A program made the position numbers and the translations under genes. From the IMG/VR virus record IMGVR_UViG_3300045988_166040, positions 1 to 35,668 of that record: a DNA stretch of 35,668 nt, one strand, 5' to 3'. Of the stretch, positions 35,470 to 35,668 are shown in pieces; within the stretch, counting starts at the first letter, position 1; every line of letters begins with the position of its first letter. The notes beneath the pieces are model-generated. The model saw nothing but the letters and a program-made list of their open reading frames with translations, had not been told where the DNA came from and searched no databases. Source of the stretch: a virus.

Positions 35470-35498
35470 TTGACATAAGCAGGTTTATTTGCTATACT
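35470..35498 (+). promoter_or_regulatory. Consensus sigma70 promoter (TTGACA-17-TATACT) driving the tRNA-like gene
   Basis: ttgaca taagcaggtttatttgc tatact. Confidence 0.7.
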
Positions 35499-35588
35499 AA
35501 CCACATAGTCGGAAGACATGAACATTGCATCACACAGATTAAAGCTTATAGAAAGCAAAATCTACTGTCAAAAGCATGTTTACTACAT

Positions 35589-35668
35589 GCGGGTATAGCT
35601 CAGTTATCAGTTATTAGAGCGCTTCCTTGCCATGGAAGAGGCCAGGAGTTAGAGTCTCCTAACCCGCA
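35589..35668 (+). tRNA. tRNA-Gly(GCC)-like gene with atypical 15-nt D-loop lacking G18G19 and T-loop TTAGAGT (A56)
   Basis: Hand-folded: 6-bp acceptor stem with an A7:A66 mismatch; D-stem GCTC/GAGC; anticodon stem CTTCC/GGAAG with loop TTGCCAT (anticodon GCC); variable region AGGCC; T-stem AGGAG/CTCCT. Confidence 0.6.
35617..35668 (+). repeat. Right copy of the 52-nt direct repeat (tRNA 3' part; att core candidate)
   Basis: Identical to 1..52. Confidence 0.9.

Follow-up and report, generated by a model that had tools for sequence, protein, structure and literature searches.

Mycobacteriophage L5 and pSAM2 both use a tyrosine integrase, the former with a 43-bp core in a tRNA-Gly gene and the latter with a 58-bp identity in a tRNA-Pro gene. 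In Haemophilus phage HP1 and streptococcal phage T12, the att identity extends over the entire tRNA sequence (182 bp and 96 bp, respectively). More generally, tyrosine integrases are said, in the work of Reiter et al. in 1989, Campbell in 1992 and Williams in 2002 (sublocation classes), to put temperate phages and islands into the 3' parts of tRNA genes.

Here we describe an attachment site of this kind at the ends of an IMG/VR virus record (IMGVR_UViG_3300045988_166040), the whole 35,668 nucleotides of which are referred to below as the window. The locus follows the tRNA-3'-end scheme in that an integrase gene stands beside attP, the identity with the host begins at the D/anticodon arm and reaches the tRNA 3' end, the 3' part comes from the element, the tRNA is intact at attL and direct repeats flank the prophage. 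It departs from that scheme in its host, a CPR/Saccharibacteria episymbiont, and in an attP that holds the whole length of the tRNA with a promoter of its own, not the 3' segment alone. With L5 it shares the tRNA-Gly target and with pSAM2 an identity of 58 bp reaching the 3' end; however, there is no demonstrated relationship between their integrases and that of the window, and L5 Int is larger and arm-binding, whereas the window encodes a XerC/D-sized protein of 298 aa. To our knowledge, neither L5 nor pSAM2 carries a promoter-equipped full-length tRNA copy. HP1 and T12 resemble the window in having attP tRNA sequence beyond the need for 3' restoration, which is duplicated on integration, but in the window phage this additional 5' sequence has drifted away from that of the host, and the 7:66 pair varies between the two. 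A cloverleaf with its own promoter and terminator in a phage genome also recalls functional phage-encoded tRNA genes; the window copy differs from these in being a copy of the host target gene at the att site, mutated at conserved positions and rejected by the tRNA finder ARAGORN.

Saccharibacteria phages and prophages have already been surveyed (PMC10746230). Term searches of the literature on them did not find the tRNA-Gly att site described here, and a blastn search of the integrase–attP region against the INPHARED phages gave no match. What is new is the particular att site; tRNA-targeting integration itself is already well known, and its understanding is unchanged. The locus is best explained as a classical tRNA-3'-end att site with a decaying phage-borne 5' part, and the window as the entire genome (35.6 kb) of a temperate phage, cut at the attachment site, whose hosts are oral Saccharibacteria (TM7, oral taxon 348-like), a joint reading that we hold with good, though not full, confidence.

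The integrase gene and its tRNA-like neighbour

The whole window is a tailed phage, in which genes for a large terminase, a major head protein and an endolysin were detected. A series of plus-strand genes begins at 33.2 kb, takes in the integrase gene and continues past the joined ends to 9.4 kb. On the minus strand, the structural/tail region contains a single ORF of 2620 aa (14534-22396), with a faint match to a family of unknown function and no functional PHROG match, and a 276-aa protein (23665-24495) whose C-terminal part matches a PHROG annotated 'sporulation protein' (E = 2e-15). The latter match is unexpected in a Saccharibacteria phage and may reflect a peptidoglycan-binding domain. 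The features of the attachment region are as follows.

34543-35439, plus strand: tyrosine integrase gene, 298 aa from GTG (gene callers take the ATG at 34555, giving 294 aa)
35463-35482, plus strand: hairpin 3' of the integrase stop codon, with the -35 hexamer of the next feature in its loop
35470-35498, plus strand: sigma-70-type promoter-like site TTGACA-17-TGcTATACT, 11 of 12 matches, with a TG extension
35499-35588, plus strand: leader or P arm, 90 nt, between the promoter and the tRNA-like sequence
35589-35668, plus strand, with CCA at 53-55 once the ends are joined: tRNA-Gly(GCC)-like sequence (Rfam RF00005)
35589-35613, plus strand: phage-specific mutated 5' part of the tRNA-Gly copy, tRNA positions 1-18 including an insertion
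35614-35668, plus strand: right att identity block (TTA plus the 52-mer), tRNA positions 19-73, identical to the host gene in at least 114 genomes
35651-35657 and 35-41, plus strand: shared T loop, TTAGAGT
1-55, plus strand: left att core (the 52-mer) and encoded CCA, which the host 5' part joins exactly in contig L181
69-174, plus strand: three hairpins 3' of the CCA (69-97, GACGC-UUCG-GCGUC with a U run; 104-124; 133-174), predicted terminators

The integrase matches Pfam PF00589 (E = 2e-29), its matches to N-terminal SAM-like domains being weak, and the R...K...HxxR...H...Y motifs are readable in its translation. Its stop codon lies 150 nt upstream of the tRNA-like sequence. In exact-protein look-ups the ATG-start version found a match, while the GTG-start version is not on record. 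IMG/VR holds 19 relatives of this integrase, each with the same layout of a tRNA-Gly sequence downstream; at 90-97% amino-acid identity they form a closely related set, within which lineage counts are not independent. The stem of the hairpin at 35463-35482 is not strictly kept among them, and its role as a terminator is therefore uncertain. A second integrase family, 52% identical to that of the window (loci L004, L005, L008, L014, L081, L140 and L161), adjoins the same tRNA-Gly core with an attP that lacks any tRNA 5' part, the identity with the host tRNA-Gly beginning at position 18. Because this family works without a 5' part, sequence 5' of about position 19 is not required for recombination here and is free to drift. 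The site itself is a hot spot for integration, as seen from tandem arrays (in contig 142396, a family-2 element is followed by a window-like phage) and from the small unrelated insertions that are also present.

The tRNA-like sequence is the window's sole Rfam match. At 49.4 bits (35589-35668, E = 8e-10), against a gathering score of 29, it passes the covariance-model threshold for tRNA (RF00005). ARAGORN, a dedicated tRNA finder, returned 0 tRNA genes in the linear, circularised or junction sequence, whereas it recognised the host gene in 114 loci; Leu calls that appeared at a relaxed threshold were spurious. The initial annotation had counted rejection by a tRNA finder against the fold, and on this point the two programs part, ARAGORN rejecting the copy and Rfam accepting it. 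The acceptor strands GCGGGTA and AACCCGC, the latter followed by discriminator A and CCA, leave an A7.A66 mismatch; a TA follows the acceptor 5' strand, and the D stem is GCTC/GAGC, then G. The D loop of 15 nt (35602-35616, AGTTATCAGTTATTA) arises with a tandem duplication, CAGTTAT/CAGTTAT, at 35601-35607 and 35608-35614. G18G19 is missing, with A at the G18 position, while U8, U19 and A56 are kept. The anticodon arm (CTTCC-TTGCCAT-GGAAG, loop TTGCCAT, anticodon GCC), the variable loop (AGGCC) and the T arm (AGGAG-TTAGAGT-CTCCT, with A56 in the loop) follow. Both the D-loop anomalies, read directly at 35601-35616, and the acceptor mismatch had been noticed beforehand and hold. The copy thus lacks a seven-pair acceptor stem, a D loop of 7-11 nt and G18, three structural hallmarks of tRNA. 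Its lowest-energy fold is still a cloverleaf (-28 kcal/mol, against -28.7 kcal/mol for the host).

Upstream of position 19 the window copy departs from the host gene in three ways (U7A, G18A and the tandem duplication of 7 nt), and nowhere else. The mutated 5' part recurs identically in an independent scaffold of 255 kb (L180), a second assembly of the same phage and the only other place where the duplication was found; it is absent from the other IMG/VR records and from JGI metagenome contigs, and the D-loop insertion variants in IMG/VR amount to one 9-nt D-loop allele from another clade. Among the assemblies compared, the duplication is private to the window phage. We also observed an 11-nt inverted match between 35606-35616 and 339-349 (CTCAGTTATTA / TAATAACTGAG). 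It was rejected as a paired feature, as relatives with the D loop CTCAGTTGTTA keep the same left-arm motif with no covariation; it is probably due to chance, or else a weak arm-type site.

The host gene, the integrated phage and the terminal repeat

The 52-mer that ends the window is exact in 21 IMG/VR stretches and in at least 120 species-representative genome loci, nearly all of Candidatus Saccharibacteria/TM7, so that a host tRNA does share it, as the initial annotation had asked of a true att core. In at least 114 species-level genomes it is preceded by an invariant 5' part, GCGGGTTTAGCTCAGTTGTTA, and followed in all by an encoded CCA. ARAGORN calls this gene tRNA-Gly(GCC), of which each host has a single gene, and Rfam gives it 68.6 bits, 19 bits above the 49.4 of the window copy. 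The G19:C56 elbow pair of tRNA is normally conserved (PMC7912444). The initial annotation had read A56 as the loss of this pair, which the host gene contradicts: its D loop (AGTTGTTA) has G18 U19 and its T loop (TTAGAGT) has A56, a combination that is invariant in all 114 species-level host genomes sampled (L022-L141), while the other tRNAs in the same loci (Phe, Gly-CCC, Leu, Cys, Val, Ala-GGC) all have GG with TTC. As judged from these genes, A56 is a host trait, with a Watson-Crick U19:A56 pair in place of G19:C56, and not a phage peculiarity; the phage copy keeps U19 and has lost G18 alone. This puts on record a phylum-wide U19:A56 replacement of a near-universal elbow pair. Separately, one Ala-CGC tRNA has A19 with U56, and a second clade allele of tRNA-Gly (GCGAGCT..., with the 9-nt D loop AGTTGTTTA) also has A56.

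The phage is found integrated at this gene, with both junctions seen. For attR, an exact-protein look-up of the ATG-start integrase retrieved L180, an ENA scaffold, which is 100% identical to window 31555-35668, duplicated D loop included; beyond the CCA it reads TTTCGGAACTAAAACGG... and continues into DNA other than the window's left end. Right after this attR, L180 4095-6885 holds genes for a large serine recombinase, a resolvase fragment and an HpaII-type restriction enzyme, probably another mobile element by the same tRNA. For attL, a look-up of the 77-aa protein at window 1154-1387 retrieved L181, a 139-kb contig that is 100% identical to window 1-5387 from the core onward. Its 2.8-kb host flank (LemA, M48 peptidase) is 98.3% identical to a single-cell genome of TM7 oral taxon 348 (L052). 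In L181 a host promoter (TTGACT-17-TATACT) and a normal 5' part lead into the core and then into phage DNA, so that attL is a wild-type tRNA-Gly gene ending in the phage CCA and terminators. Two further contigs, L186 and L187, have the same attL junction and are about 99% identical to the window. Relatives have also been caught integrated, since contig 121314 continues past its attR into DNA with 95% identity to the region downstream of an unoccupied tRNA-Gly in a MAG locus (L071). An adjoining tyrosine recombinase gene, a 58-nt identity block, integration with direct repeats and a tRNA restored at one junction together bear out the proposal, made from the window alone, of an att core in a tRNA 3' part beside an integrase. 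That proposal had gone further, to a diverged phage half that rebuilds the tRNA on integration. The 5' part is indeed phage-supplied and diverged, but in this phage it is the host 5' part that, joined to the phage 3' part at attL, restores the wild-type tRNA, and the phage's own 5' part is left in what would be a defective attR hybrid (L180); the role of that part as the reconstituting half does hold in some relatives (see below).

The terminal direct repeat is exact (1-52 = 35617-35668, with none longer) and spans G22, in the D-stem 3' strand, to discriminator A73, as had been noted beforehand. Direct terminal repeats are the usual evidence for complete circular viral contigs and, in general practice, are commonly taken as a sign of circularity, which is what can be said for reading the 52 nt as the mark of a circular or terminally redundant genome with a coincidental position in a tRNA. 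We regard that reading as highly improbable. The true identity between phage and host is 58 nt (TTA + 52 + CCA, tRNA positions 19-76), and 52 equals 2x55-58, which is the assembly-graph rule for a collapsed 58-nt repeat at k=55. In such a de Bruijn graph, the phage edge extends from the last of the shared 55-mers (GAGC...CCA) to the first (TTAGAGC...GCA). Being even, 52 cannot itself be a k-mer overlap. The ends of the repeat coincide exactly with the points at which phage and host diverge, not with a circular overlap or packaging product, several contigs break at the same bases, and the same phage is found integrated with these exact junctions. The arithmetic at k=55 also fits contigs 165178 and 118211. 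The former starts at GAGC, as does ENA contig L189, and ends at core position 41; its 5' part agrees with that of the host from U8 onward, so that 69 nt are shared, and 110-69 = 41. The latter starts 11 nt before the core, and its last shared 55-mer stops a single base short of the A/T66 polymorphism. Its other end is at core position 30; there the first shared 55-mer begins 4 nt 5' of the tRNA, at the point of divergence between the leaders of phage and host.

The repeat is thus a real att identity whose length was set by the assembler, and it is uninformative on circular versus integrated state. The suspicion that it might be only an assembler overlap was right about its length, which comes from the assembly graph, and wrong about its substance, as the 58-nt identity is real and hosts share the 52-mer. 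In the terms of CheckV-style evidence from direct terminal repeats, the window has the exact repeat, and a complete element lies on its contig, which spans exactly one prophage length from core to core; the repeat differs, however, in stemming from a collapse of attL/attR (or attP/attB) in the graph instead of circular overlap. It is a worked case of a short terminal repeat on a viral contig that can be such a collapse. In one relative, contig 168876 (L002), the att cores are inverted and lie about 6 kb apart (1-52 on the plus strand, 5973-6024 on the minus strand); an inversion between att sites, or else an assembly error, could account for this.

The phage-borne 5' part, its promoter and its leader

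In the arrangement that we propose, attP would reproduce the host tRNA-Gly(GCC) gene over its full length, preceded by a phage promoter with a 90-nt leader and followed by phage terminators. The adjoining integrase would recombine attP with the host gene inside the 58-nt identical block. From the window's identity boundary at position 19, together with relatives that have T66 on the left and A66 on the right, we infer a crossover between positions 19 and 65. attL would then consist of the host promoter and host 5' part with the phage 3' part and terminators, keeping the host's only tRNA-Gly(GCC) intact, and attR of the phage promoter, leader and mutated 5' part with the host 3' part. With its 5' part unneeded for a working tRNA in this phage, the attP copy could accumulate defects: A7 opposite A66, the loss of G18 and a 7-nt duplication by slippage.

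The distribution of changes among relatives is consistent with this. In the 20 integrase-adjoining copies, positions 19-76 are unchanged except for one allelic variant set (L160), in which the anticodon stem, the T stem and the 7:66 pair all differ by changes that fully compensate one another, and for T66 in L142. Over the first 18 positions, 12 of the 20 copies equal the host and 7, including the window, are altered. In these seven lineages, the changes are scattered over positions 1, 5, 7, 8, 9, 10 and 11, and break U8 and D-stem pairs. A natural A7:U66 allele exists, both in a host-type context (L169) and in the fully paired copy of L160, the leader of which is closest to that of the window. 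A7 was probably inherited from a lineage matched to A7:U66 hosts, and the window has the look of a combination in which the P arm is of the A7 lineage and the core fits U7:A66 hosts. The tRNA of attP and attR is most likely a decaying pseudo-tRNA, although the kept cloverleaf fold and the Rfam score above threshold speak against this.

These same two observations could instead mean that the promoter–tRNA–terminator unit is a working phage tRNA-Gly, a second copy or a specialised variant that is expressed in the free phage and, in the lysogen, from attR. In its favour, the minimum free energy is reached by the cloverleaf, which stands between a conserved promoter and terminators, and the 5' part equals that of the host in 12 of 20 relatives. 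We nevertheless consider a working tRNA unlikely. ARAGORN rejects the copy, which combines A7.A66, the lost G18 and a 15-nt D loop with a score 19 bits below that of the host gene; its duplication is known from no IMG/VR or JGI metagenome contig beyond the two assemblies of this phage; and other lineages break U8, G10 or C11, as expected without selection for tRNA. The unit itself is complete, as first described, in that all of the listed elements are present, but its terminators lie at the left end of the window, so that it exists only across the junction.

The promoter and part of the leader are better conserved than the tRNA 5' part that follows them. Both promoter hexamers are unchanged in all of the 20 related sequences, and even in prophages with a DNA identity of only 85%, and are more conserved than the third codon positions of the adjoining integrase gene. 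The phage promoter and the tRNA-Gly promoter of TM7 HOT-348 have ATTTGCTATACTA in common. The extended -10 and a leader block, the latter reading TCGAAAGAnAGAACATTGCATCA, are likewise invariant in all 20 sequences, including the 7 with degenerate 5' parts, and in these more distant prophages. Beyond its conserved 5' part, the leader falls into four mosaic classes in its 3' part, and an inverted repeat around AGAT...ATCT (window positions of about 35534-35568) is kept in every class. RNAalifold on a MAFFT alignment of the leaders gave no consensus structure, and the leader has no match among the known RNA families of Rfam. A small ORF in the leader (ATG at 35520) was discarded, as the ATG is absent from most relatives. 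At the other end of the unit, the three-hairpin region has a minimum free energy of -45 kcal/mol (z = -6.9), and its first hairpin (69-97) resembles native terminators found after the tRNA in TM7 genomes, such as L083. The three hairpins appear to be acting as phage-supplied terminators for the tRNA rebuilt at attL.

Invariance of the promoter hexamers even in lineages with a degenerate 5' part is not explained by a pure relic model, and the promoter may have a role other than the tRNA, in P-arm protein binding, in a leader RNA or in transcription across att. It is conceivable, if we would rather bet against it, that promoter, leader and 5' part are all kept for such a role, as a P-arm platform for the integrase or an excision factor, or for transcription across att (in the control of recombination, or feeding the plus-strand genes from about 494 in the circular form), the tRNA-like shape being incidental. 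This would account for hexamers and a leader block that stay invariant while the tRNA 5' part decays, for the inverted repeat in every leader class, and for the plus-strand genes that continue through the integrase across the junction. Yet three strong hairpins after the CCA should stop read-through, the related integrase family works without any 5' part, and the leader resembles no known RNA family. A classical att site with a decaying 5' part remains our preferred account.

The 7:66 pair in related phages

A second source of divergence lies inside the core, at the base opposite position 7. T66 is found at the left end of L162 and of contigs 121314, 165568, 147370, 118211 and 131912 (L148, L150, L153, L152 and L142, with L164-L172). 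In L162 the host 5' part, with U7, is joined to the T66 left end, giving an attL with U7.U66. At attR of contigs 121314, 165568 and 147370, the A66 3' part comes from the host and is preceded by the phage promoter and an intact 5' part of the phage; the sequence so formed is wild type. In lysogens of this type, it is the phage-supplied half that, by the predicted pairing, reconstitutes the only perfect copy of tRNA-Gly. Among contigs with both ends known, a degenerate 5' part is found in 4 of 4 phages with an A66 left end and in 0 of 6 with T66, counts that come from related lineages and are not independent; contig 168876, with its two inverted cores, was left out of this comparison. The association between the left-end allele and the intactness of the 5' part is suggestive.

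In a family whose attP is a full-length tRNA-Gly gene with a promoter of its own, every integration would make two hybrid genes, and the 7:66 pair, which is U7:A66 or A7:U66 in hosts, may decide which of the two is wild type, with a dependence on the prophage in the T66 cases; we put this forward tentatively, as a possibility well short of the probable. If it is true, phages with a mismatch in their own copy (T7/T66 or A7/A66) would leave each of the two types of host with one perfect tRNA-Gly and one only. In U7:A66 hosts, the only wild-type tRNA-Gly(GCC) left by T66 phages would be the attR hybrid, with the phage promoter and phage 5' part, and a reduced-genome host with a single copy of the gene would depend on prophage sequence. 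A phage 3' part that matches the host, as in the window, would leave the phage 5' part free to decay. The analysis also links a complete 35.6-kb temperate phage and about 20 relatives to oral Saccharibacteria of a cultivable lineage, with exact attL, attR and attB sequences of use in assigning hosts and in constructing integration tools for a phylum whose genetics has hardly been developed.
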